Part shown: one piece after another, positions 33,799 to 46,595 of the stretch
Layout: each line of letters starts with the position of its first letter
Position numbering within the stretch: position 1 is the first letter of the stretch
From: an uncultured Fibrobacterota bacterium
GTDB taxonomy: Bacteria > Fibrobacterota > Chitinivibrionia > Chitinivibrionales > FEN-1185
Assembly: GCA_963753345.1 (NCBI GenBank)
Contig: CAVWBU010000036.1
Coordinates: 13,477 to 77,476 of the forward strand
Reading direction: 5' to 3'
Length of the DNA: 64,000 nt
Translations under genes and position numbers: made by a program
The notes under the pieces: model-generated
What the model saw: only the letters and a program-made list of their open reading frames with translations
Told to the model about the DNA's origin: nothing
Database searches by the model: none

Positions 33799-35280
33799 AT
33801 GATCCGGGAATTTCGTGAACGTCTGAGATCGGACTGGCCGGTTGTCGGTGTGACTGCTGCGATTCTGCTTCTCCTTCTCCTTCTTCCCCTTTTCTTTGGG
33901 GGACTGAGGGAAGATGGATACTGCACGTACAGGATAATGTGGCTCAATTACCTCGGGCACCGGTTCAAGCTGCCCCTGGAAACCCCCAAGCCGCTGTACG
34001 CTCTGTTGTGCGGCGTCGTGGGCCATGGCGCGCTGTATCCCGTGACGTGCACGCTGTGCGCCGGCATATGCGCGCTGCTGATGAAAATGGCGCAAAGGCT
34101 CGGGGCGAGCGCATGGCAGGGACTTGTCGCGTTCTGCCTGTTCCTTGTCGGCAACGCCATGGTCCTGCCGGAGTTTGTGATGGCGTCATACTACACGATA
34201 CCCTATTTATTCCTCACGCTGGCGGCGGTATATGCTTTTGTAAGTAAACGCCCCCTCCCGGCGATGTTCTTTCTGCTGGGCGCGGGACTCCTCAGGCCCG
34301 AGGCGTGGCTGTTTGCGCCGGTGTTTATCCTTGCATCGGTATTCAGGAAAGAACGGGGGTTTTCCTGGTGGCTTCTGGCCTCTTTGACCGCCCCCCTCAT
34401 ATGGGTTCTGTTCGACGAAAGAATATCCGGAAGCCCCACTTACTCCCAGGATCTCACGGACTACTATGTGAAAACCCTGGGAATCATGCCTGTTTCGTTC
34501 GGCCAATTCTGGGGAGAGGCGGCCCGCGCCACGGCATCGACCTTTTTCCCGCCGACGCATCTGTTCGGGCTCGCGGCGCTGGTCTATGTGGCGGCCAGGA
34601 CGCGGAGGCACGAGCACCTTGTGATGGCAATCCTCGCGGTGGTGCCGTTTATGTTTCTCTGGCTCCTTTCCGCCGGTCATCCCGTGCTGGTTCAGACCAG
34701 ATTTTTTGCTTTCCCGATGCTCGTATGCTGTTTCTACGCAGCGCTTGTCATGAGGGAATTCTCAAAGAACAGGTGGATTCTTGTTCTGCTCTCCGCGGCA
34801 CTCCTCTGCGGTTCGTTTCAATTCGGCATGCTGTCCGACACGGCGCGGCGGATACGGAATGACGGTGCGATAGAAGAGGCGCGAAAAGACCTTGTGGAAT
34901 CCGTTAGAACCATGGAGAGCAATGCCGACGTTATCCTGTGCGGCCGCTCGGCCAGCTATTTTGCCTATCACCTCGGGGAGAGAGCGTCGCGCAAGCTGTT
35001 CATGTTCAGGGAGGCGGAAGCAAGAACGGATTTTGAAAAGAACTTTTCAAACGGGGTGGCTGTTTACATTCAGGACGATATGGCGGGCCTGGACAATGCC
35101 TTCAAGTTTCTTTCCGCACCGCGAATATACGAGGTGAACGGCTACCGTTTCTCGCCAGTGAAGGTGACGACGCGCGGCAACGGGATCGTGTATGCCGTTG
35201 AGAGGCTGCCCCGGCGGCTCATCCCGCCGCAGGGCCTTGGCGCGGCGCCCCCGGCCGACAAAGCAGGCGGCAACCGGTGA
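33799..35280 (+). CDS. Polytopic membrane protein, GT-C glycosyltransferase-like
   Basis: Many TM segments; TPKPL, LLRPEAW motifs. Confidence 0.5.
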   Translation: MIREFRERLRSDWPVVGVTAAILLLLLLLPLFFGGLREDGYCTYRIMWLNYLGHRFKLPLETPKPLYALLCGVVGHGALYPVTCTLCAGICALLMKMAQRLGASAWQGLVAFCLFLVGNAMVLPEFVMASYYTIPYLFLTLAAVYAFVSKRPLPAMFFLLGAGLLRPEAWLFAPVFILASVFRKERGFSWWLLASLTAPLIWVLFDERISGSPTYSQDLTDYYVKTLGIMPVSFGQFWGEAARATASTFFPPTHLFGLAALVYVAARTRRHEHLVMAILAVVPFMFLWLLSAGHPVLVQTRFFAFPMLVCCFYAALVMREFSKNRWILVLLSAALLCGSFQFGMLSDTARRIRNDGAIEEARKDLVESVRTMESNADVILCGRSASYFAYHLGERASRKLFMFREAEARTDFEKNFSNGVAVYIQDDMAGLDNAFKFLSAPRIYEVNGYRFSPVKVTTRGNGIVYAVERLPRRLIPPQGLGAAPPADKAGGNR

Positions 35281-35438
35281 AGCTCCCCGAGCTGCCGCAA
35301 GGAGTTTTCCAGCAGAAAACGTTTTCTTGCGGACAGCCTTGCCAAGGTGCCTCTTTTGTCTTATATTGTAGAGTGATCATTGGAGATTTGATCGGTGCCG
35401 GGACAGGTGCGCAAAAACAACCTTTTTTAGGGGGTATC

Positions 35439-37229
35439 ATGAAAAGACAGTTGTTCATTGGTGCAACGGCATTGATGGCGTTCCTTATTGTTGAGGCCAA
35501 TGCAGGTTTGGTGGCGTACTGGGATTTCAACGAGGGGAGCGGAGCCTTATTGCATGATAAAAGCGGACATGGCAACGATGGGACAATTTACGGCGCATCG
35601 TGGGCCTCGGGATTGACAGGCTCGTCACTCTATTTCAACGGAACAACCAACTACGTCGTACTGCCTAATCCGCTCCCCTTCGAGCTCCCGCGTTTTACCA
35701 TCGCATGCTGGATAAAGCCGCAAGACCCATATGTCGCGCAGTCAAGGGCCTTCTTCAGTAACTTGGAGGCGGTGTCCGGCGTGTCCAATGGCGTTTGCAT
35801 TGAGCTCGATATCAGACATTATCTTCACTTCGTCGTTGCCAGGGCCGATAACCAGGATTACTGGTTGGAAATTAATGCAACAGTTAGCATCTCCGATAGT
35901 TCCTACCATTTTGCCGCCTGTAGCTATGACGGGGCGAGTCTCAAACTGTTTTTCGACGGCGTATTTGTTGCACAGGCACCATACAGCGGCGGCATCAGGT
36001 ATAGCAATGTGATGCCCTATATCGGCGCTTCACCAAATGATATAAACCATCTAGGCTATTATAAGGGAAATATCGACGAAATGCGAGTGTATGACCAAGC
36101 GCTTTCCCTTTCGGAGTTGCTTGCTCTCTACAACAACAGGGGGCAAAGCGCCCTGGCGGAGTTCCTTATTCCGGTCCCGTCGCCCACCTATGACCGCCGT
36201 CCGGTCTTTTTCTGGCATCCCGTGAAAGGCGCAGGCGGATACAACATCCAGATTGACACCACCAGAAACTTCACCAATCCAATTATAAGCGTGGCTACAG
36301 CGGACACCTCTTTCAGGCCGGGTGCGGACCTTCCTATTGACACCATTTTTTGGCGGGTCATGGCAGGCGTCAATGACACACTCACCTATTTCTCGGACAT
36401 CGGCTCCTTCCTCATACAGAATCCGAAGGTGCCGCTTCTCATCCCGTACGAGCCCAAGGTAACCCTGGAGCGGAAGCCCCTCTTACGGTGGCATCCGGTT
36501 GCGGGGGCTTCTTCGTACACGCTCGAGATCGGCAATGATGTCGCCTTTATCAATAATTCTTACATCATTCCTCTCAGCGACACTCAGTATTCGCCAACGG
36601 TCAACCTTCCCTTTGGCGAAACGTACTGGCGTGTGCAATCAAGTCTTGCGCCTGCGTGGTCTGCCTTCGACATGTTCCAGATCGTTCCGGATTCGATACC
36701 CTTCCTGATCCGCTACAACGGGGCCGTGGTTTCGGCAGCGAAACCGTTGTTCGCGTGGCACCCGGTGGTCGGCGCCGCTTCATATACGGTTGAATTCGCC
36801 GGCAACGCTTCGTTTACAGGAGGATATGTCGTGCCTCTCACTGACACGTCTTTCGCGCCTTTGGTTGCTCTATCGAATGGCACGTGGTTTTGGAGGGTAA
36901 GCTCAAGCAGGAACCCTGCGTTGTTTTGCGCCCCGGACAGCCTTGTGATCGCATCGGTGCTGGCGAGGACCGAACGCAGATCAGCGGCCGTACCGTTTGC
37001 CGTGCGGTCCTTTAAAAGCCGTTTCGAGATAACGGCCGACTTCTCCACAAATGCGAACGTGAAAATCACTCTGTTTACGGCGGGTGGAAAGAAGGTTCTG
37101 GAGCGTTGCGTGACCGCCTGCGGTACAACGGTTTCAATCGACGCAGTAGAAGTCCCGACCGGCATTTACCTGATGGAATTAGTGGCAGGGGAGAAGTGCA
37201 TCAGGCAGAAGGTGATGGTGGCACGGTAG
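35439..37229 (+). CDS. Secreted LamG-domain protein with three FN3-like repeats and T9SS-type tail
   Basis: LVAYWDFNEG, GNIDEMRVY; three WHPVxGA..Y..WRV repeats; GIY..KVMV. Confidence 0.8.
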   Translation: MKRQLFIGATALMAFLIVEANAGLVAYWDFNEGSGALLHDKSGHGNDGTIYGASWASGLTGSSLYFNGTTNYVVLPNPLPFELPRFTIACWIKPQDPYVAQSRAFFSNLEAVSGVSNGVCIELDIRHYLHFVVARADNQDYWLEINATVSISDSSYHFAACSYDGASLKLFFDGVFVAQAPYSGGIRYSNVMPYIGASPNDINHLGYYKGNIDEMRVYDQALSLSELLALYNNRGQSALAEFLIPVPSPTYDRRPVFFWHPVKGAGGYNIQIDTTRNFTNPIISVATADTSFRPGADLPIDTIFWRVMAGVNDTLTYFSDIGSFLIQNPKVPLLIPYEPKVTLERKPLLRWHPVAGASSYTLEIGNDVAFINNSYIIPLSDTQYSPTVNLPFGETYWRVQSSLAPAWSAFDMFQIVPDSIPFLIRYNGAVVSAAKPLFAWHPVVGAASYTVEFAGNASFTGGYVVPLTDTSFAPLVALSNGTWFWRVSSSRNPALFCAPDSLVIASVLARTERRSAAVPFAVRSFKSRFEITADFSTNANVKITLFTAGGKKVLERCVTACGTTVSIDAVEVPTGIYLMELVAGEKCIRQKVMVAR

Positions 37230-37479
37230 GCCGCGGCGTTTGAGTACGACTGGGGACTGCTCGATTGCCCCTCTTGCCGGAGAGTGCCGAACTCCGATCG
37301 TGTGCCACGTTCCGGGCGATCCGTATCCCGCCGAAGATGGATCAATAGAAAATGCTTGGAGAATGGGACTTTCGCAACGGTATTGATTCTCTTTTGCAAG
37401 TCACTTTCTGCGCCGCAGTTGCCGTATTCCAACGGCGCTTTGGCTTTTTCTGCCGATTCGTGCACCCGGGAATCCGCAA

Positions 37480-37513
37480 ACCAAAACGTAACTTCCACAC
37501 ACCAAAACGTCAC
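37480..37513 (+). promoter_or_regulatory. Direct-repeat operator candidate (21-bp period)
   Basis: ACCAAAACGTAAC at 37480 and ACCAAAACGTCAC at 37501. Confidence 0.5.
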
Positions 37514-37679
37514 AGAGAGGGACGACGGGTGATAGGTCGTCTGTTTTCACATGGCCAATCGAACATTCTCCCTCTGGCATAGGCTTTGCGGTTACAAGGA
37601 CATTCATGACCCGTGCATGGAACACGGAAACGGTCTATTTGCAAATTCACCAAATCCCTTTCTTCACGGAGGAACTGCT

Positions 37680-38393
37680 ATGCGCAAGCGAATGGCTGGT
37701 TTATTCGTCTGTCTGATCGTCTGCTTTGTTGTGGCGCAGGATCAAGATTCTCCGCGTTTCGGCATTAATGTGACGACCAACACCTTGTCACTGAGTAATA
37801 CCGACTATGGAGCAAAGGGATTGCGGAACACCGGAATGCTCGGCGGAAGATACTTTGTCATTCCGTCACTTGCCGTCGACGCCGCCGTCGGATTCGGTTT
37901 CAGCACCTCGACCAACGCCGATACCGCGGCGCTCACACCCAAAGACCCCGGCATTACGGAAGTGAGCGGGCAGGTGGGCGTGTTGTGGAAGTTGACACCT
38001 GGATCCTGGAAATCATATCTGGGGGTGGTCGTCGACGGCGGCGTTGCCTACCAAAAATGGTATGATGCCATAACACTCAAAGATACGACGAGAGTAATGC
38101 CCGCCCCTCCGGCAAAGAATTATGTGTCCTATACTCTGGTCGAACCCTATTCCGTTGTCATCCCGTTTATTTTTGCAGGCATCGAGCCGGGATTCGCATT
38201 CGACAATCATTTCTCGCTTTTCGCAAGTTTCGGCATAAACGCGATTTTCTACCCCGATTCCAAGGCAATCGATCAACGTTCGGTCAGTACGAATACCACC
38301 TATATAACCTCGCTTCCCCTTATCGAACGTAAAGACGCCAGTATCGAACTGTCGGTCTCCTCGGTCGGCCTCGGGGTCCGCTTTCTTTTTTAG
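37680..38393 (+). CDS. Outer-membrane beta-barrel protein
   Basis: Signal peptide, amphipathic strands, terminal GVRFLF. Confidence 0.7.
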   Translation: MRKRMAGLFVCLIVCFVVAQDQDSPRFGINVTTNTLSLSNTDYGAKGLRNTGMLGGRYFVIPSLAVDAAVGFGFSTSTNADTAALTPKDPGITEVSGQVGVLWKLTPGSWKSYLGVVVDGGVAYQKWYDAITLKDTTRVMPAPPAKNYVSYTLVEPYSVVIPFIFAGIEPGFAFDNHFSLFASFGINAIFYPDSKAIDQRSVSTNTTYITSLPLIERKDASIELSVSSVGLGVRFLF

Positions 38394-38407
38394 CCGCCGT
38401 TATAACC

Positions 38408-38434
38408 GCCCTTTCCGGCATTGCCGGAAAGGGC
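38408..38434. terminator. Hairpin between convergent genes
   Basis: GCCCTTTCCGGCA-T-TGCCGGAAAGGGC. Confidence 0.65.
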
Positions 38435-38464
38435 CCCGATATTCCGTGCCGGCTGATAGTTCCC

Positions 38465-39622
38465 TTACCCTTCCAGCGTTATCCTCGCCCTTCCCTCGCG
38501 CTTTGACCGGTAGAGCGCCTCGTCGGTCCGCTTCACGATGCTCTTTTCGTCTTCGCCCGCCATTGCCTCCGCGATGCCGATGGAAAGGCTCACCCTTCCG
38601 AATTTGAACGCGCCGAACTGCTTGGAGATACGCTCCGCCGCGACTTTTGCCTGGTTCTTGTCGGTGTCGGGAAGAATGACGGCGAACTCGTCGCCGCCGT
38701 AACGGAAGCCGGCGTCGACGTCTTTACGGATGCATACCTTGATTACCTGGCCGAGCGACCTGAGCACCTGGTCTCCCACCTGGTGGCCTTCGGTGTCGTT
38801 GAGCTCTTTGAAGTGATCGATGTCGATGAGCATGATCGACAGCTTGCGCTGCGGGTTGCGCTTGAGCCGGGAGAGCTCGCGCACGATCTGGTCGTAGAAA
38901 TGCCGCACGTTGAACAGTTCGGTGAGGCTGTCGGTGATGGCAAGCTTCGACAGCAGCTCGTTCTTCTTGACAAGCTCGTTTTCGAGCTTCTTCTTCTCCG
39001 TGATGTCCTTGGCCGTCACCACGAGGCCGATGATCTGCTCGGCGTCGTTTTTCATCTCAGAAATGCTCAGGTTGAGAAGGATGATTTCACCCTGTTTGGT
39101 TTTCATGGGGATTTCTTCGTTCACCGATTTTCCGGAAAGAATGACCGCATTGAGGATCTTGCGCTCGTCGGCTTCATTGACAAAAAGTTGCTTGAGCGGC
39201 ACGCCTACGATCTCCTCCTGAATGTAGCCGAAGTGCATTTCCGAGCCTTTGTTGAATTTGAGGATGAAGGCGTCGACGTCGGTGGTGAAGATGATGTCGG
39301 TCGAATCGTCCAGGATGCTCTGGAGATAGTTCGATTTCGCAAGGGTCCTTCGCATCGTAAGCTGGGTCTTCTCCATTCTCTTGACAAATTCCCTGATGTA
39401 CTTGAAGAAGCCGAAGAGGAGGCCGCCAAGGAGTGAGGCGGCGAGCAACGAAACGAATGCGGCCCAGATCCATTGCGGGGACTTAAACAGCCCCAGAAAC
39501 ACCGCGAATACGAGAATCACCGCAAAGCACAATGCTCCCGCAGCGACAATCGTTTTTTGCGGTATACCGCTGTAGTTGTTGTAATTTGGAAGAAACGGCT
39601 TTATCAGGTTCACGTTGTTCAT
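38465..39622 (-). CDS. Membrane PAS-GGDEF diguanylate cyclase
   Basis: Two TM helices, PAS/PAC, TDSLT, DIDHFK, RYGGDEF. Confidence 0.93.
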   Translation of the reverse strand: MNNVNLIKPFLPNYNNYSGIPQKTIVAAGALCFAVILVFAVFLGLFKSPQWIWAAFVSLLAASLLGGLLFGFFKYIREFVKRMEKTQLTMRRTLAKSNYLQSILDDSTDIIFTTDVDAFILKFNKGSEMHFGYIQEEIVGVPLKQLFVNEADERKILNAVILSGKSVNEEIPMKTKQGEIILLNLSISEMKNDAEQIIGLVVTAKDITEKKKLENELVKKNELLSKLAITDSLTELFNVRHFYDQIVRELSRLKRNPQRKLSIMLIDIDHFKELNDTEGHQVGDQVLRSLGQVIKVCIRKDVDAGFRYGGDEFAVILPDTDKNQAKVAAERISKQFGAFKFGRVSLSIGIAEAMAGEDEKSIVKRTDEALYRSKREGRARITLEG

Positions 39623-39869
39623 TCACCTGATGAAATGTATCGTGAAGCGCAACCGCACTTTACAGCTTGCGCATCAACCGTTGAAAAAGGAATCATCTCA
39701 TCTTATTCTACACTAATTTGTTAAATAATAGAAGCAAAAAATGAGACGCTTGGTTTTTCGGTTTGTTTAAGCGCTTATTGATGATTACGAACCATGCTCT
39801 TTTTTCTTGTACGAAATGGACAAGCATATAGTATTTATGTCCAGGTTTGAGCAACAAGTAAGGTAAATC

Positions 39870-40250
39870 ATGCTCGGCAGAATAGACAAGACAAAAGGTC
39901 AGATGGAGGCCGAAATAAGCGACGCCGTCACCCGGTTCGAAAAAGAATTCATGGGACGGGGCCCGCTGGAGACGAGGACCTACATCATAGACGACATGGT
40001 GATCGTCCGGCTCAAGGGCGTGCTTACCAGAGCGGAATACCGCCTTGTGAAGTCGGAGCGCAACTCCAAGGCCCGCGACCTTGTCAAGCAGGTGCGCATT
40101 GAGCTGCTCGAAAACGGCAGGCCGCTGCTCGAGGACATCATCAGGGACGTGCTCAAGCGCAAGGTCAAGAGCATGCACACCGATATCAGTACCATGAGCG
40201 GGGAGCGGATCATTATCTTCACCCTCGACAGGGCCGCTCTGGAAGACTGA
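39870..40250 (+). CDS. DUF2294 / MpsC-family protein
   Basis: TKGQMEAEIS, GRGP, GVLTRAE, MHTDIST..GERIIIFTL. Confidence 0.85.
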   Translation: MLGRIDKTKGQMEAEISDAVTRFEKEFMGRGPLETRTYIIDDMVIVRLKGVLTRAEYRLVKSERNSKARDLVKQVRIELLENGRPLLEDIIRDVLKRKVKSMHTDISTMSGERIIIFTLDRAALED

Positions 40251-40357
40251 TTCCGCATATCGCAGAGTTTTCTTTGTCGCGCCCGGCAACCGTGAGTGTG
40301 ACATTTTTCACCGGCGTGCAATTGCGTCTAAGTTTTTTCTTGCCGTTTTCCCGGGGC

Positions 40358-40366
40358 TGTTATAAT
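40358..40366 (+). promoter_or_regulatory. Extended -10 promoter for pckG leader
   Basis: TGTTATAAT. Confidence 0.6.
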
Positions 40367-40509
40367 TTTTTAGTGCCGTACGGAAGCCGCGTGCAGGCGA
40401 CCTGCTTGGTCGCGGGCGCTTGCGGATGCCGGAACGGACGCGGCCGGTTTGCAACCGGCCCGGTATCAAGCCCGGTTGACTCTTGCTCAAGGGGCAGTCC
40501 GGGGGTGAG

Positions 40510-40552
40510 GGCCAAGGAAATGCCGAAGGGTATTTCTCTGGTCTTTTTTTTT
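40510..40552 (+). terminator. Intrinsic terminator in pckG 5' leader (attenuator candidate)
   Basis: GGCCAAGGAAATGCC-GAAG-GGTATTTCTCTGGTC followed by T9, about 100 nt before pckG ATG. Confidence 0.8.
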
Positions 40553-40655
40553 ACCAGGATATCCGGGATTAAAACCGATTATCAGGATAACAGGGCAACA
40601 GACGGCATCACCGCAGGAATTGCGGTGGCTTCCTGACAAGAAAGAAAGGAATACC

Positions 40656-42464
40656 ATGGATGTGAAGGCGACCGCTTCCAACAAGAAACTCGAGCAGTGG
40701 GTAAAAGACATTGCCGGCATGTGTCAACCTGACGGCGTTCACTGGTGCGACGGCTCGCAGGAGGAATACGACGGCCTGTGCGCCCGGATGGTTTCGTCGG
40801 GCATGGCCACGCAGCTCAATCCGGCAAAGAAGCCGGGGTGTTTTCTGTTCCGCAGCCACCCGTCCGACGTGGCGCGCGTCGAAGACCGTACCTACGTGGC
40901 GCCGCATTCAAAGGATGATGCCGGTCCCACAAACAACTGGATGGATCCCGACGCGCTCAAGAAGAAAATGACCGGTTTGTACACAGGCTGCATGAAGGGC
41001 CGCACCATGTATGTCATTCCTTTTTCCATGGGGCCAATCGGCTCGCCGATATCGAAAATCGGCGTGGAAATCACGGATTCGCCCTACGTTGTGGTGAACA
41101 TGAGGATTATGACCCGCATGGGAAAAAGAGTGCTTGACGCGCTCGGCGCGGACGGAGAGTTCGTTCCATGCCTTCATTCGGTGGGAGCGCCGCTTGCCAA
41201 AGGACAAAAGGATTCCGCATGGCCCTGCGCGCCCGATATCGCCAACAAATACATAAGCCATTTTCCCGAGGAGCGGACCATCTGGTCGTACGGGTCGGGC
41301 TACGGCGGCAACGCGCTTCTGGGCAAGAAATGTTTCGCGCTGCGCATTGCGTCGGTGCAGGCGCGCGATGAAGGGTGGCTGGCCGAGCACATGCTTATTC
41401 TGGGCATAACCAATCCTCAGGGAAAAAAGAAGTACTTTGCGGCAGCTTTTCCAAGCGCCTGCGGCAAGACCAACCTTGCCATGATGATTCCCACGATTCC
41501 CGGCTGGAAAGTGGAAACCGTCGGCGACGACATCGCCTGGATGAAGTTCGGCCCGGACGGAAGGCTGCACGCCATCAACCCTGAATCGGGTTTTTTCGGC
41601 GTGGTGCCGGGAACCTCCATGGATTCGAACGCCAATGCCATGCTTTCCATTGAGAAGAACACGATTTATACCAATGTAGTGCTCACTCAGGACAAAGATG
41701 TCTGGTGGGAAGGAATAGGGTTCGATCCTCCTGCGGGAAAAAACATCGACTGGACCGGACAGGAATGGGACATGACCATGCGCCGGACAGGCGCGCATCC
41801 GAATGCGCGGTTCACGGCCCCGGCCGCGCAATGCCCGGTCATTGATCCGGCATGGGAGGATCCGCAGGGAGTTCCGATAAGCGCGATCCTTGTCGGCGGC
41901 CGCAGGCCGACAACAATACCGCTTGTGCATCAGGCTTTTTCGTGGAACCACGGCGTTTTTCTCGGATCGATTGTCGGCTCTGAAACCACCACGGCAAACA
42001 TCGGTGCGGTCGGCGTGGTCCGGCGCGACCCGTTTGCCATGCTTCCGTTCTGCGGATACCACATGGGCGACTATCTGGCGCATTGGATTGAAATCGGCAA
42101 GAAGACCGCGGCCGACAAACTGCCCAAGATTTTTTATGTGAACTGGTTCAGAAAAAGCGACGACGGCAAGTGGCTGTGGCCCGGCTACGGCGAAAACAGC
42201 CGGGTGCTCAAATGGATATTCGAGCGCACCGACGGCGCGACCAATGCCGTTGAATCTCCAATCGGCTACCTGCCCGCTCAAGGCGCCATAGACACCAGCG
42301 GTCTGCCGGTTGCGGCCTCGGACATGAAGGAGCTGTTCAGGGTGGACGCAGCGGAGTGGAAGAAGGAACTGGAGGGGATCAAGGACCATTACAGGAAATT
42401 CGGATCAAGGCTGCCTGCGGCTCTTTCCGGCGAGCTTGCGGCTCTTGAGAAGCGGCTGGGATGA
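40656..42464 (+). CDS. pckG: GTP-dependent PEP carboxykinase
   Basis: [44 protein letters not shown]. Confidence 0.97.
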
Positions 42465-42592
42465 CGGGCTACGATTGTTCACCAGGCTAGGGGTTTATTA
42501 TATATTAATGAACCAGGCCACAATCGCCCTTCCGGCTTGGCCAAAACCATAAAGAAACATCGCACTGCGACCACAACAGAAGGACATGAGCC

Positions 42593-43429
42593 GTGCCTTG
42601 GTTTATCAAGTCTAAGACTGCGGAAAAGCAGACCAAACCGGTCAAGGACGACATCTGGGTCAAGTGCGATTCCTGCAGCGCTCATGTTTTTAAGGAAGAC
42701 TGGTACAATTCCCTCAATGTCTGTCCCAAATGCGGATTTCACGGCAAGCTCACGGCGTATGAGCGCATCGGGCAGATCCTCGACATTGAGACGTTCAAAG
42801 AAATGTTCGCCTCAATAACTCCGTCCGACCCACTCTCCTTTGTGTATGCCAAGGGCAGTTACAAAGACAAGGTGAAAGAAACCCGCGATAAAACCGGGCT
42901 CAATGAATCGGTCGTGTGCGGCACGGGAGAAATCCATGAAATTCCCGTTTCGATAGCCGTAATGGATTTCCGGTTTTTCGGCGGCAGTCTGGGCAGCGGT
43001 ACCGGAGAAAAGATCCTGCTTGCCTCAAACTACGCATACGAGCACAAAATCCCGTACATCATTTTTTCCGCCTCAGGCGGCGCGCGCATGCACGAAGGGA
43101 TCCTTTCGCTCATGCAGATGGCCAAAACATGCGCCGGCATTGCACGGCTTCGCGAAAAGAAAATCCCCTACATTTCGGTCCTTACGGATCCGACGACGGG
43201 TGGCGTCGTTGCTAGTTATGCCATGGTAGGCGACATCAACATCGCGGAACCAGGTGCGCTGGTCGGCTTTGCCGGCAGGCGCGTGATAGAGCAAACCATA
43301 AAGCAGAAACTGCCCGAAAATTTTCAGACCTCAGAGTACTTTCTTGAGCATGGCTTCATCGACCTTATCGTTGAGCGCAAGAATCTTAAAGAAACCTTGA
43401 AAAACGTTCTCCTCTACTACACCCGGTAA
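42593..43429 (+). CDS. accD: Acetyl-CoA carboxylase carboxyltransferase beta (GTG start)
   Basis: WVKCDSC..CPKC zinc finger, SGGARMHEG, PTTGGV.AS, GFAGRRVIEQT. Confidence 0.96.
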   Translation: MPWFIKSKTAEKQTKPVKDDIWVKCDSCSAHVFKEDWYNSLNVCPKCGFHGKLTAYERIGQILDIETFKEMFASITPSDPLSFVYAKGSYKDKVKETRDKTGLNESVVCGTGEIHEIPVSIAVMDFRFFGGSLGSGTGEKILLASNYAYEHKIPYIIFSASGGARMHEGILSLMQMAKTCAGIARLREKKIPYISVLTDPTTGGVVASYAMVGDINIAEPGALVGFAGRRVIEQTIKQKLPENFQTSEYFLEHGFIDLIVERKNLKETLKNVLLYYTR

Positions 43430-43453
43430 AAGGTCCCAGCGGGGCAAATTCAT

Positions 43454-44404
43454 ATGAGCGATTATCTTGAATTTGAAAAGTCGATTGCCGAGATGGAGAA
43501 AATGATCGAGAAGCTCAAATCGATCTCTCCCGACGAGAATCATTACAGCGACGAAATCGCCGAGCTTGAGAAAAAATGCCTCCACCAGAAGCAGGAGCTA
43601 TACTCCAGCCTCACACCCTGGCAGACGGTCCAGATCGCAAGGCATCCAAAGCGTCCCGTGCTGCAGGATTACATTTCGCTTATTTTTTCAGATTTCATCG
43701 AGCTTCACGGGGACCGCTGTTTCGGCGACGACCAGGCGCTCATCGGCGGGTTCGCCACCATCGGCAAGCGCCGGGTGATGCTTGTCGGCCACAACAAGGG
43801 CAAGAACGTCGACGAAAACGTATTGCGCAATTTCGGCCAAGCAAAGCCCGAGGGATATCGCAAGGCGCTCCGTCTCATGAGGCTTGCCGAGAAGTTCAAT
43901 CTGCCCATACTTTGCTTTATCGACACGCAGGGCGCGTATCCAGGCGTCGACGCCGAAGAGCGCGGTCAGCCCGAAGCCATTGCCACCAACCTCACCGAAA
44001 TGGCGCGTCTCGAAGTGCCCATAATAGCCGTGGTCACCGGCGAAGGCGGCAGCGGCGGCGCGCTTGCCATCGGCGTGGGTGATTCGGTGCTCATGCTGTC
44101 GCATGCGGTGTATTCGGTGATTTCTCCCGAAGGGTGCGCATCCATTTTATGGCGCGATGCGTCATTTTCGCCCCAGGCCGCCGAGGCGATGAAGCCCACG
44201 GCCCAGTCGCTTCTGTCGCTGGGCGTGATAGACGAGATAATTCCTGAGCCCCTTGGAGGCGCCCACCGTAACCACGAACAGACCGGCCAGGAAATCAAGC
44301 GCGTGCTTCTCAAGCACCTCAAGAAACTGTGCGCCCAGTCTGCGTCGAGACTGGTGAGACACAGGTTCGAGAAATATTCAGCGATGGGATTGTTTGCAGA
44401 TTAG
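43454..44404 (+). CDS. accA: Acetyl-CoA carboxylase carboxyltransferase alpha
   Basis: ARHPKRP, ELHGDR, PEGYRKA, GEGGSGGA, YSVISPEGCASILW. Confidence 0.96.
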   Translation: MSDYLEFEKSIAEMEKMIEKLKSISPDENHYSDEIAELEKKCLHQKQELYSSLTPWQTVQIARHPKRPVLQDYISLIFSDFIELHGDRCFGDDQALIGGFATIGKRRVMLVGHNKGKNVDENVLRNFGQAKPEGYRKALRLMRLAEKFNLPILCFIDTQGAYPGVDAEERGQPEAIATNLTEMARLEVPIIAVVTGEGGSGGALAIGVGDSVLMLSHAVYSVISPEGCASILWRDASFSPQAAEAMKPTAQSLLSLGVIDEIIPEPLGGAHRNHEQTGQEIKRVLLKHLKKLCAQSASRLVRHRFEKYSAMGLFAD

Positions 44405-44431
44405 GTGCGCGTTTTTATGATCTGACCGCAA

Positions 44432-44545
44432 AATCACCACAGAGACACAGAGGCCACAGAGAAAACGAGAGCGAGAATCAAGAATGAAATTCACCAGGTG
44501 CACCGTTTTTTCAAGGCTTTCAACTTCCAACTCTCAACTTTGAAC
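44432..44545. repeat. Short tandem repeats between accA and carboxylase gene
   Basis: cacagag x3 (caccacagagacacagaggccacagag); tttcaac ttccaac tctcaac tttgaac at 44518-44545. Confidence 0.65.
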
Positions 44546-44603
44546 TCTTCTTCTCTCCACGGGGTGAAAGTATTTTAGTTTTTCAAACCAACAGGATACA
44601 ACC

Positions 44604-46595
44604 ATGGCCGCCATAAAAAAACTGACCATAGAAAACAAACTCCACAAGATCCCGCTGCGCATCACCGACACCACGCTGCGCGACGCGCACCAGTCGCTGT
44701 GGGCCACCCGCATGCGCACCGCGGATATCGAAAAAATCATCGACGTCATCGACAACGTCGGCTATTATTCGCTGGAATGCTGGGGCGGCGCGACGTTCGA
44801 CGTGTGCCTCCGTTTTCTCCGCGAGAACCCGTGGGAGCGTCTGAGGCTCATCAAGTCGAAGGCGAAGAAGACGCCGCTGCAGATGCTTCTGCGGGGGCAG
44901 AACCTTGTGGGATACCGCAACTACGCCGACGACGTCGTCGACCGGTTCGTGGCCCTTGCCTGCGAAAACGGCATGGATATCTTCCGCGTGTTCGACGCGC
45001 TTAACGACACGCGCAACATCGAAGCAGCAGTGAGGGCGGTCAAGAAACACGGCGGTCACGCGCAGGGGACGCTGTGCTACACCATAAGCCCGGTGCACAC
45101 CATCAAGAAATTCGTGTCGTACGCGCGCGAGCAGAAACAGCTCGGCGTGGATTCGATTTGCATCAAGGACATGGCGGGAATTCTTTCGCCCATCATGGCC
45201 GAGCGGCTCGTGAGCGCGCTTATCAAGGAGCTTGAAATACCCATCCAGCTCCATTGCCATGCCAGTTCCGGCATGGCGATCTCCAGCTACGTTGAAGGCG
45301 TCCGCGCCGGCGCGGGCGCGATCGACTGCGCCATTGCCGCAATGGCCGGAACCAGCAGCCAACCGCCTGTTGAGACCATGGCCGCCATTTTTTCGGAGAC
45401 CGACTATCACGCCGATCTCAACCGTGATGCCATGCTCCGCGTGCACCGGTACTTTGCCGACCTGTACGCTCAGCGCAACACCGACACGTCGCTCGTGTTC
45501 TGCATCGACCCCCAGATCCTCATCCACCAGATCCCGGGCGGCATGATCTCGAACTTCCGCTCCCAGCTCGCGAAGCAGAATGCGCTTGACAAACTGGAGG
45601 ACGCGCTCACGGAAGTCACGCGCGTGCGCGAGGACCTCGGATGGCCGCCGCTCGTGACGCCCACGAGCCAGATCGTGGGGACACAGGCGGTGATGAACGT
45701 GCTTTCCGGCGAGCGATACAAGATCGTCCCCAACGAGGTGAAGGACTATTTCCGCGGCCTGTACGGCCGCGCGCCGGCAAACGTGAACCCGGAACTGGCA
45801 AAGAAGATCCTCGGCGACGAGAAGCCCATCACCGTGCGGCCCGGCGACACCATCGCTCCCATGCTGCCCAAGGCGACCGAGGGAATAGATCCCAAGTACA
45901 TCAAGAACGAGGAAGACATTATTTCGTACTGCATTCTTCCCGAGCCGAGCCTTGAGTATTTCAAGTGGCGCGACATGCCGCCGGACAAGCGTCCCGAAAC
46001 GCCGGCGGACCTGGAGCTTAAGAAACTGAGCGCTGCCGCAGAAAAGAAAACCGCGGTGACAACGGAGAAGAAAGAGGAGGCTCCTTTCCTCGACCAGATA
46101 CTGCACCCCGAAGATTACCGCGGACTCGGCGAACTCCTCAACAGGGCCGGAGGGCTTCGGCTTGACGAATTGACAGTTAAGAAAGGCGATTTTTCCCTGT
46201 CGCTCAGATCGGACACCACGAGAATGCCTGTAATTCCCAAACCGGTTCCAACTGCCGCTCCCGGGGAGGCTTCTACAAAAAAAGAGGGCAAACCGGCAGA
46301 AGCCGGACCCGCGGCCGCAAAGGAAGAAAAGAGCGCGCCGATCCCAACGGTTGGACCGTCGATCAAGGCGCCTCTGGTCGGCGCGTTCTATTCCACGTCC
46401 GGACCGGGCAAGCCGAAGCTTGTGAACGTGGGAGACGTGGTGGAGGCCGGGACCAAGGTGTGCATCGTGGAGGCCATGAAGCTGTTCAACGAGATAGTTG
46501 CCCCTGTCAGGTGCAAGATCCTTCAGTTCCTCGTGGAGGACGGGACCACGGTGGAAAAGAACCAGCCGCTGATTGCCATAGAAGAATTAAAGTAA
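44604..46595 (+). CDS. Pyruvate/oxaloacetate carboxyltransferase (PycB/OadA/5S-like) fused to AccB-type biotin carboxyl carrier
   Basis: RDAHQSL, WGGATFD, IKDMAG, HCH, PPLVTPTSQIVG; C-terminal APLVGAFY..EAMKLFNEI. Confidence 0.9.
   Translation: MAAIKKLTIENKLHKIPLRITDTTLRDAHQSLWATRMRTADIEKIIDVIDNVGYYSLECWGGATFDVCLRFLRENPWERLRLIKSKAKKTPLQMLLRGQNLVGYRNYADDVVDRFVALACENGMDIFRVFDALNDTRNIEAAVRAVKKHGGHAQGTLCYTISPVHTIKKFVSYAREQKQLGVDSICIKDMAGILSPIMAERLVSALIKELEIPIQLHCHASSGMAISSYVEGVRAGAGAIDCAIAAMAGTSSQPPVETMAAIFSETDYHADLNRDAMLRVHRYFADLYAQRNTDTSLVFCIDPQILIHQIPGGMISNFRSQLAKQNALDKLEDALTEVTRVREDLGWPPLVTPTSQIVGTQAVMNVLSGERYKIVPNEVKDYFRGLYGRAPANVNPELAKKILGDEKPITVRPGDTIAPMLPKATEGIDPKYIKNEEDIISYCILPEPSLEYFKWRDMPPDKRPETPADLELKKLSAAAEKKTAVTTEKKEEAPFLDQILHPEDYRGLGELLNRAGGLRLDELTVKKGDFSLSLRSDTTRMPVIPKPVPTAAPGEASTKKEGKPAEAGPAAAKEEKSAPIPTVGPSIKAPLVGAFYSTSGPGKPKLVNVGDVVEAGTKVCIVEAMKLFNEIVAPVRCKILQFLVEDGTTVEKNQPLIAIEELK

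Follow-up and report, generated by a model that had tools for sequence, protein, structure and literature searches.

We describe a leader RNA that lies between a DUF2294/MpsC-family gene and pckG in an uncultured Fibrobacterota bacterium, within a 64,000-nt stretch of DNA analyzed as a whole (hereinafter the window). It is very probably a real, conserved and uncatalogued cis-regulatory leader carrying an intrinsic terminator, and represents a family of transcription-attenuator RNAs not described before; the RNA family and its proposed protein partner are new, whereas the type of mechanism is known. As to how it works, we favor a cis-acting terminator/antiterminator switch operated by the DUF2294 protein over a self-sufficient riboswitch, and give the DUF2294-operated switch roughly an even chance of being correct. 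A literature search covering titles, abstracts and main texts recovered no account of the leader RNA, and none that links DUF2294 to an RNA; likewise, the main texts of PMC5737381 and PMC11109978 mention no carboxykinase, carboxylase, bicarbonate or DUF2294, although their supplements could list such a motif.

Layout of the locus and its conserved core

The features of the region, in window coordinates, are as follows:

39870..40250 (+): DUF2294/MpsC-family gene coding for a basic protein of 126 aa (Pfam PF10057, E 1.1e-37)
Spacer of about 405-410 nt (+): from the DUF2294 gene (39870-40250) to the pckG ATG (40656)
40313..40338 (+): weak terminator-like hairpin (40313-40328) and T-run 3' of the DUF2294 gene (consensus scan: 6-bp stem with 3 GC pairs)
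40337..40366 (+): promoter-like element with a poor -35 and an extended -10, TG-n-TATAAT, at 40358-40366 (read from the sequence)
40373..40441 (+): 5' domain, a long multi-tier hairpin in the minimum-energy (MFE) fold that includes the hairpin at 40397-40413
40442..40460 (+): variable second hairpin GGCCGGTT/AACCGGCC, not conserved outside the genus
40462..40513 (+): core hairpin P3, with a 2x2 purine loop below the pairing of UCA (40466-40468) to UGA (40506-40508)
GGU 40462-40464 with GCC 40511-40513 (+): possible extension of P3, the proposed antiterminator (MFE fold of the fragment)
40509..40552 (+): intrinsic terminator with an interrupted 15-bp stem, a GAAG loop and nine U
40609..40627 (+): small hairpin just 5' of the pckG ribosome-binding site AAAGG (40645-40649)
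40656..46595 (+): operon predicted to be controlled by the leader (Pfam, NCBIfam), with the four genes below, each identified by Pfam and NCBIfam
40656-42464 (+): pckG, GTP-dependent PEP carboxykinase (PEPCK)
42593-43429 (+): accD
43454-44404 (+): accA
44604-46595 (+): PycB/OadA-like carboxyltransferase with a biotin carrier domain (663 aa)

A structured attenuator-like leader had been proposed at this position in an earlier sequence-only reading, all of whose coordinates proved correct when checked against the DNA. The extended -10 on which it drew is read directly as TG-T-TATAAT at 40358-40366, and the two hairpins that it named, GCGACC/GGTCGC and GGCCGGTT/AACCGGCC, are equally read directly at 40397-40413 and 40442-40460; its strong terminator with T9 is likewise present before the pckG ATG at 40656, as a stem at 40509-40543 followed by nine T at 40544-40552. 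The whole ~410-nt spacer folds at -162.4 kcal/mol as against -143.7 ± 5.8 kcal/mol for shuffled sequences (z -3.25; none of 100 shuffles as good), with z -3.7 for the 5' domain at 40373-40461 (0/200 shuffles as good) and z -3.3 for the core at 40462-40552 (1/200). The segment 40509-40552 combines a stable stem-loop with a U-tract, the hallmark of an intrinsic (Rho-independent) terminator, and when folded alone reaches -20.8 kcal/mol (z -4.3; 0/200 shuffles as good). A generic consensus scan returned three terminator-like sites where 1.9 ± 1.7 were expected, which is not significant by itself, and left the leader promoter unflagged because its -35 is poor. Across the family, a naive search for the best sigma70 match over 230 nt was too noisy, and a window-restricted search was used in its place; this recovered an element of the form TTGxxx, 16-18 nt, TAxxxT at 65-121 nt 5' of the core in 43 of 46 copies.

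Some further features of the locus may be recorded here. The small hairpin at 40609-40627, which might affect translation or mRNA stability, has a similar counterpart, judged by eye, in the congener G002. A gene for a PAS-GGDEF diguanylate cyclase (38465-39622, minus strand) is divergent from the DUF2294 gene, and the AT-rich spacer between these two holds the region's only match to the sigma70 consensus (39681-39709). The stretch was found in 13 sequencing runs, all of the DNA type and from peat, freshwater sediment or soil metagenomes.

The main support for the element comes from its conservation among relatives, a comparison that also showed which part of the leader defines the family. A DNA search recovered window positions 40465-40573 as the conserved stretch, and not the two 5' hairpins; the covariance model matched the window at 40462-40552 (87-100 bits) and found this family-wide element in relatives. 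Hence, of the key elements put forward in the sequence-only reading, the leader itself is conserved, whereas conservation of both 5' hairpins and of the 'GCAGGCGACC' motif is limited to the genus. The 5' domain forms a long hairpin in every leader folded, yet its sequence varies between families, compensatory changes in it being seen within the genus. In the core, the terminator stem covaries across families and the U-tract is kept in 60 aligned copies. Among 58 distinct sequences, including metagenomic ones, 91.5% of the cells in modeled pairs are paired as against 69.4% in shuffles, with 0/500 shuffles equaling the observed values and only 40-54% pairing when partners are slid, although these statistics are favored by the fitting of the alignment to the covariance model. 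Compensatory changes occur in all 30 modeled pairs across the same 58 sequences, all P3 pairs among them. A structured, covarying domain lies upstream of an expression platform and is predicted to overlap it, which is the general layout of a riboswitch; support for this overlap, between the extension of P3 and the terminator's 5' arm, is moderate.

The absence of a known Rfam class, which the sequence-only reading had suspected, was borne out when the window segment 39500-41000 was compared with the 4227 models of Rfam 15: the best E-value was 1.3, and the two matches touching the leader, at 15.2 and 11.2 bits, fell short of their gathering scores, 60 and 57. The same comparison for 16 other member loci gave no match at E ≤ 0.05.

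Phyletic range, gene neighborhoods and the DUF2294 protein

We recovered the core in 36 of the 81 genomes of the class (covariance model R2; 32/81 with the earlier model R1), the class being represented by one order in the genome collection used. Most RNA-positive genomes have a single copy, and three (G008, G016 and G027) have two or three. Seven further weak members came to light when the neighborhoods of MpsC or pck genes were searched unfiltered (G022, G029, G078, G018, G024, G007 and G075). Two of these, in G007 (L285, 1915-2011, minus strand) and G075 (L286, 3337-3429, minus strand), are real members with 33-34 bits upstream of pck, and since they were missed by the strict-filter whole-genome searches, the counts for the class are lower bounds. 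In G007, genes are inserted between the DUF2294 gene and the leader. One whole-genome match, L049, was discarded as false, as it lies inside an ORF on the other strand.

Beyond the class, the core was matched in none of 79 genomes sampled from the rest of Fibrobacterota. Among the matches listed for public genomes, the 15 above 54 bits all bear Fibrobacterota-type names (Chitinivibrionales-type and Chitinispirillaceae-type) and all others score 34.5 bits or less; the underlying pattern scan returned at least 120 stretches, 80 loci of which were fetched, so that these figures set no bound to the taxonomic range. Model R2 scored only 22-25 bits on three DUF2294 loci of one Planctomycetota genome. 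Two near-identical elements, each a rod hairpin plus terminator, lie near two of the three DUF2294 genes of the Planctomycetota genome G166 (L197, 1164-1268, and L199, 2120-2225, both on the minus strand); judged by their score, these are a different RNA of similar architecture (only 22-25 bits with the model). The sole match of model R3 among 151 Planctomycetota genomes (37 bits) was judged spurious: it is a short hairpin plus terminator, and its locus has no DUF2294 or PEPCK match.

The association of the leader with DUF2294, noted at first for the window alone, is tight across the class. In 33 of the 46 tabulated copies the leader is immediately preceded, at 123-454 nt, by a DUF2294 gene on the same strand; five of these 33 loci were fetched around the DUF2294 gene itself, and without them the figure is 28/41. 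A comparison of the covariance model with Pfam over the 81 genomes found PF10057 in 54 of them, including all 36 RNA-positive genomes, and found the RNA in none of the 27 that lack PF10057. The three genomes with two or three leaders (G008, G016 and G027) have one DUF2294 gene, beside the accD-accA copy. Conversely, 10 of the 54 DUF2294-positive genomes have no recognizable class-1 leader, and an eleventh, G013, has only a diverged one, seen by eye. G039 was considered as a natural co-loss of DUF2294 and the RNA and set aside as probably an assembly gap, its pck being cut by the contig end.

A metagenome scan with the DUF2294 alignment recovered 592 relatives, and among the best 80 of these the RNA follows at 130-330 nt downstream on the same strand in 26, while many of the remaining contigs end too early to tell. 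Of these 26 matches, at 24 distinct loci, 20 have a scannable next ORF. These ORFs code for PEPCK (6), accD (2), biotin carboxylase (1), the large chain of carbamoyl-phosphate synthetase (1), hexapeptide proteins resembling gamma-carbonic anhydrases (2), SAICAR synthetase (2), biotin ligase (1), a DUF2294 paralogue (1), or a product with no family (4).

After other DUF2294 paralogues in the class comes a different hairpin-plus-terminator RNA, and then a second paralogue and DUF4914; three genomes (G017, G023 and G035) have both modules, with the class-1 leader and the second RNA each after its own type of DUF2294. We observed the second RNA between tandem DUF2294 paralogues at L185-L188, L192 (~2390-2650, locus coordinates), L280, L281 and L283, and in the last three a further terminator-ending element follows it. 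A literature search on DUF4914 found nothing. At L179 (G018:C76), DUF2294 is followed by a hairpin plus terminator, a putative carbonic anhydrase (Pro_CA_2) and citrate synthase. In Domibacillus mangrovi (L196, 4989-6151), the DUF2294 gene and the start of an ORF that appears FdhD-like by eye overlap, no leader follows the DUF2294 gene, and this gene is divergent from a 991-aa ORF.

The statement in the sequence-only reading that DUF2294/MpsC proteins are encoded with MpsAB-type genes has to be narrowed to staphylococci. In the window, the DUF2294 gene is not encoded with MpsA/MpsB (DabB/DabA-type) genes; its Pfam-scanned neighbors over 35277-46595 are the GGDEF-PAS gene, pckG, accD, accA and the PycB-like gene. 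Fan et al., 2019 (PMC6689103) confine the association to staphylococci, with mpsC not collocated with mpsAB elsewhere, and report that mpsC deletion gives no phenotype and that mpsC is dispensable for MpsAB function.

The genes downstream of the leader form a coherent set. Every one of the 46 tabulated copies is followed by a same-strand gene, which codes for PEPCK in 31 (GTP-PEPCK in 25, long PEPCK in 6), starts an accD-accA pair in 12 and a fabD-fabG pair in 3. Leaving out two copies with miscalled start codons, the U-tract and the start codon lie no more than 72 nt apart in 31 of 44 copies, and in 14 of these 44 the distance is 32-47 nt; gaps of 32-47 nt are too short for a separate promoter, which suggests that these genes are read through the terminator. 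The window's own gap of ~103 nt could hold a promoter, and the consensus scan, which also missed the leader promoter, found none in it. The sequence-only reading had allowed that the terminator might only end the DUF2294 mRNA; however, 13 of the 46 copies have no DUF2294 gene upstream, so that the element is not merely the end of such a transcript. Taken together, these comparisons support the earlier proposal of a cis leader, with a promoter-like element and a terminator, before pckG and other carboxylation genes.

The pckG-accD-accA-PycB/OadA-like operon of the window has no biotin carboxylase in it, and from its domain content we speculate that it could constitute an oxaloacetate-driven transcarboxylase route to malonyl-CoA. 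Long or divergent variants of GTP-PEPCK stand behind the leader in families f2, f4 and f8 (L040, L048, L182, L012, L020 and L028); three that were scanned with Pfam are 652-700 aa long with an N-terminal extension before the PEPCK_N domain, and in some lineages the variants share 35-39% identity with either reference PEPCK.

The DUF2294 protein of the window is a full-length member of PF10057 (128.9 bits, cut-off 23; all 111 profile positions covered), and NCBIfam has no name for it. Its pI is 9.3, the median over 47 aligned homologues being 9.6. As PF10057 is its only Pfam match, no known DNA-binding or enzymatic domain was detected in it. The AlphaFold model is confident (pLDDT 90.6), and the protein has no sequence relative in the PDB. 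Foldseek returned no clear relative (best E 0.02, TM ~0.42, for YslB, TRAPP Bet3/TPC6 and H-NOX), the best VIA-align score (Z 6.9) was within the noise range, and the ESM Atlas gave no usable match for DUF2294. With no clear fold relative, RNA binding by DUF2294 draws no support from structure.

A possible antitermination switch and its alternatives

In folds of transcripts cut before the 3' arm of the terminator, a helix forms between the GGU(U) that immediately precedes the UCA and the G-R-C-C with which the terminator's 5' arm begins, and this alternative helix extends P3 across a purine mismatch. It is the minimum-energy fold of window positions 40462-40513, recurs in the truncated-transcript folds of 31 leaders (by eye, uncounted), and competes for the same bases with UGGUC of the terminator's 3' arm. 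Its mean duplex energy in the leaders is -4.2 kcal/mol, compared with -2.7 kcal/mol for their other 9-mers, a difference for which the Wilcoxon p of 4e-6 overstates the case because the sequences are related. The helix ranks in the best quartile in 30 of 58 copies and in the best decile in 12, whereas 10 of the 58 have it only weakly (no stronger than -1.8 kcal/mol) or lack it. With 3-6 bp that are nearly invariant, it shows little covariation; one compensatory change within the genus, from U-A to C-G, fits it.

We envisage the region as the promoter-proximal leader of the pckG-accD-accA-pycB-like operon, on which transcription would start a few bases past the extended -10, at ~40373, and would by default stop at the terminator at 40509-40552. 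Read-through would need P3 to be held in its extended form, with the GGU 5' of the UCA paired to the G-R-C-C of the terminator's 5' arm, in which case, going by the way intrinsic terminators work, the base of the terminator stem could not form beside the U-tract. Gene linkage points to the small basic DUF2294/MpsC protein encoded just upstream as the most likely holding factor; the same linkage suggests that it would serve one to three leaders per genome as an RNA-binding antiterminator. Because the regulon consists of CO2/bicarbonate-dependent and biotin-linked steps, the signal is probably, if speculatively, inorganic carbon supply or carboxylation demand; for CO2/bicarbonate in particular, we infer it from regulon chemistry only. 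The 13 copies that are not next to a DUF2294 gene count against this reading, as do the DUF2294-positive genomes with no recognizable class-1 leader, the leaderless Domibacillus locus, the shortness and uneven strength of the alternative helix, the fold searches and the room for a promoter in the window's own gap. The linkage itself is non-independent evidence because the genomes are related.

The same 13 copies favor the strongest competitor, a metabolite- or ion-sensing ON riboswitch, which we consider a serious though less probable explanation. Here the conserved internal loops at the base of P3 and the conserved lower terminator stem would form the aptamer, DUF2294 would be merely co-located or co-functional, and candidate ligands are bicarbonate or metabolites linked to carboxylation, for instance oxaloacetate, PEP, malonyl-CoA or acetyl-CoA. 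The covarying structure, with its conserved unpaired nucleotides, directly abuts the terminator, and metagenomic variants, by eye, keep further conserved loop nucleotides inside P3. A riboswitch would also suit the occurrence of several copies per genome before functionally related genes with one chemical theme: PEPCK, the ACC carboxyltransferase and fabD-fabG in the class genomes, to which the metagenomic relatives add biotin carboxylase, CPSase, hexapeptide (gamma-carbonic-anhydrase-like) proteins, SAICAR synthetase and biotin ligase. However, the RNA was found in none of the 27 genomes without DUF2294, and a self-sufficient riboswitch would not be expected to keep the fixed order of DUF2294 gene followed by leader or to come in paralogue-specific types; moreover, the conserved core is small and mostly helical, and the 5' domain varies between families.

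A constitutive partial terminator or insulator, which would damp or insulate transcription into the operon and end DUF2294 transcripts with no signal-dependent switch, is unlikely. It would account for a strong terminator right after a gene and for the shortness of the proposed alternative helix, but the conservation across families of P3, with its UCA/UGA pairing and purine loop, goes far beyond what a terminator needs, and the copies with no upstream DUF2294 gene each have a promoter-like element of their own. Still less probable is an independent trans-acting sRNA of ~180 nt that stands upstream of pckG by chance: although its own promoter-like element, its terminator and its sRNA-typical size would fit, the invariable presence of a same-strand downstream gene from one functional set, the short gaps to these genes, and the placement of the two or three copies of a genome each before a different operon of the set all speak for action in cis. 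Leader-peptide (ribosome-mediated) attenuation is highly improbable, since the 17-codon ATG frame from ~40423 in the window's leader (by eye) lacks a ribosome-binding site before it (by eye) and lies in the 5' domain, which differs in sequence and length between families with indels that are not multiples of three.

Parallels with known systems and biological significance

The DUF2294-operated switch that we favor has parallels in three kinds of known systems. In the BglG/SacY/LicT systems, an imperfect RAT hairpin, interrupted by internal loops, shares sequence with the 5' arm of an intrinsic terminator; the gene for the regulator is often found immediately before the leader and operon, and one regulator can serve several leaders. 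The hairpin/terminator overlap predicted here is analogous, with a helix of 3-6 bp that is weak or absent in 10 of 58 copies; however, the DUF2294 protein, with PF10057 as its only Pfam match, lacks CAT and PRD domains, the RNA, whose 5' domain spans 70-120 nt, is longer, the sequence is unrelated, and the regulon comprises carboxylation genes in place of sugar uptake. In the hut operon of Bacillus subtilis, HutP is a small regulator encoded just upstream of a terminator-containing leader through which it permits read-through. The present locus resembles it in having the gene for a small protein just upstream of a terminator leader before metabolic genes, and differs from it in that DUF2294 is not of the HutP family by Pfam (PF10057 only), with fold searches showing no clear relative, and in the promoter-like element between the DUF2294 gene and the RNA. 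In ON riboswitches such as HMP-PP (thiS), Na+ (DUF1646 motif) and guanidine-I, the aptamer overlaps the terminator. With these the leader shares a covarying structure that abuts or shares nucleotides with the terminator, and several copies before a coherent gene set; in contrast to them, it matches no Rfam family (window and 16 other loci) and is strictly nested within DUF2294-positive genomes.

To our knowledge, CO2/bicarbonate sensing in non-photosynthetic bacteria is largely an open subject, and DUF2294/MpsC is an orphan family. As a tentative generalization, which we hold with distinctly less confidence than the existence of the leader, DUF2294/MpsC proteins may be a new class of RNA-binding antiterminators that act as sensors of inorganic carbon (bicarbonate/CO2) or of carboxylation demand and activate a 'carboxylation regulon' through cognate leaders that differ between paralogues and phyla. 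In this class the postulated regulon would consist of PEPCK, acetyl-CoA carboxylase and fatty-acid starter enzymes; in metagenomic relatives and paralogues it would take in carbamoyl-phosphate synthetase, purine carboxylation steps, biotin ligase and carbonic-anhydrase-like proteins. If true, this would give an orphan protein family a function and reveal a CO2-responsive system of gene control in bacteria.

The locus offers a testable pair, namely a conserved RNA core of ~90 nt with its terminator and a basic protein of 126 aa. If DUF2294 binds the RNA, a new family of antiterminators would be defined; if it does not, the RNA would become a riboswitch candidate whose ligand is linked to carboxylation. 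In both cases the result would be a new family of regulatory RNAs absent from Rfam 15.
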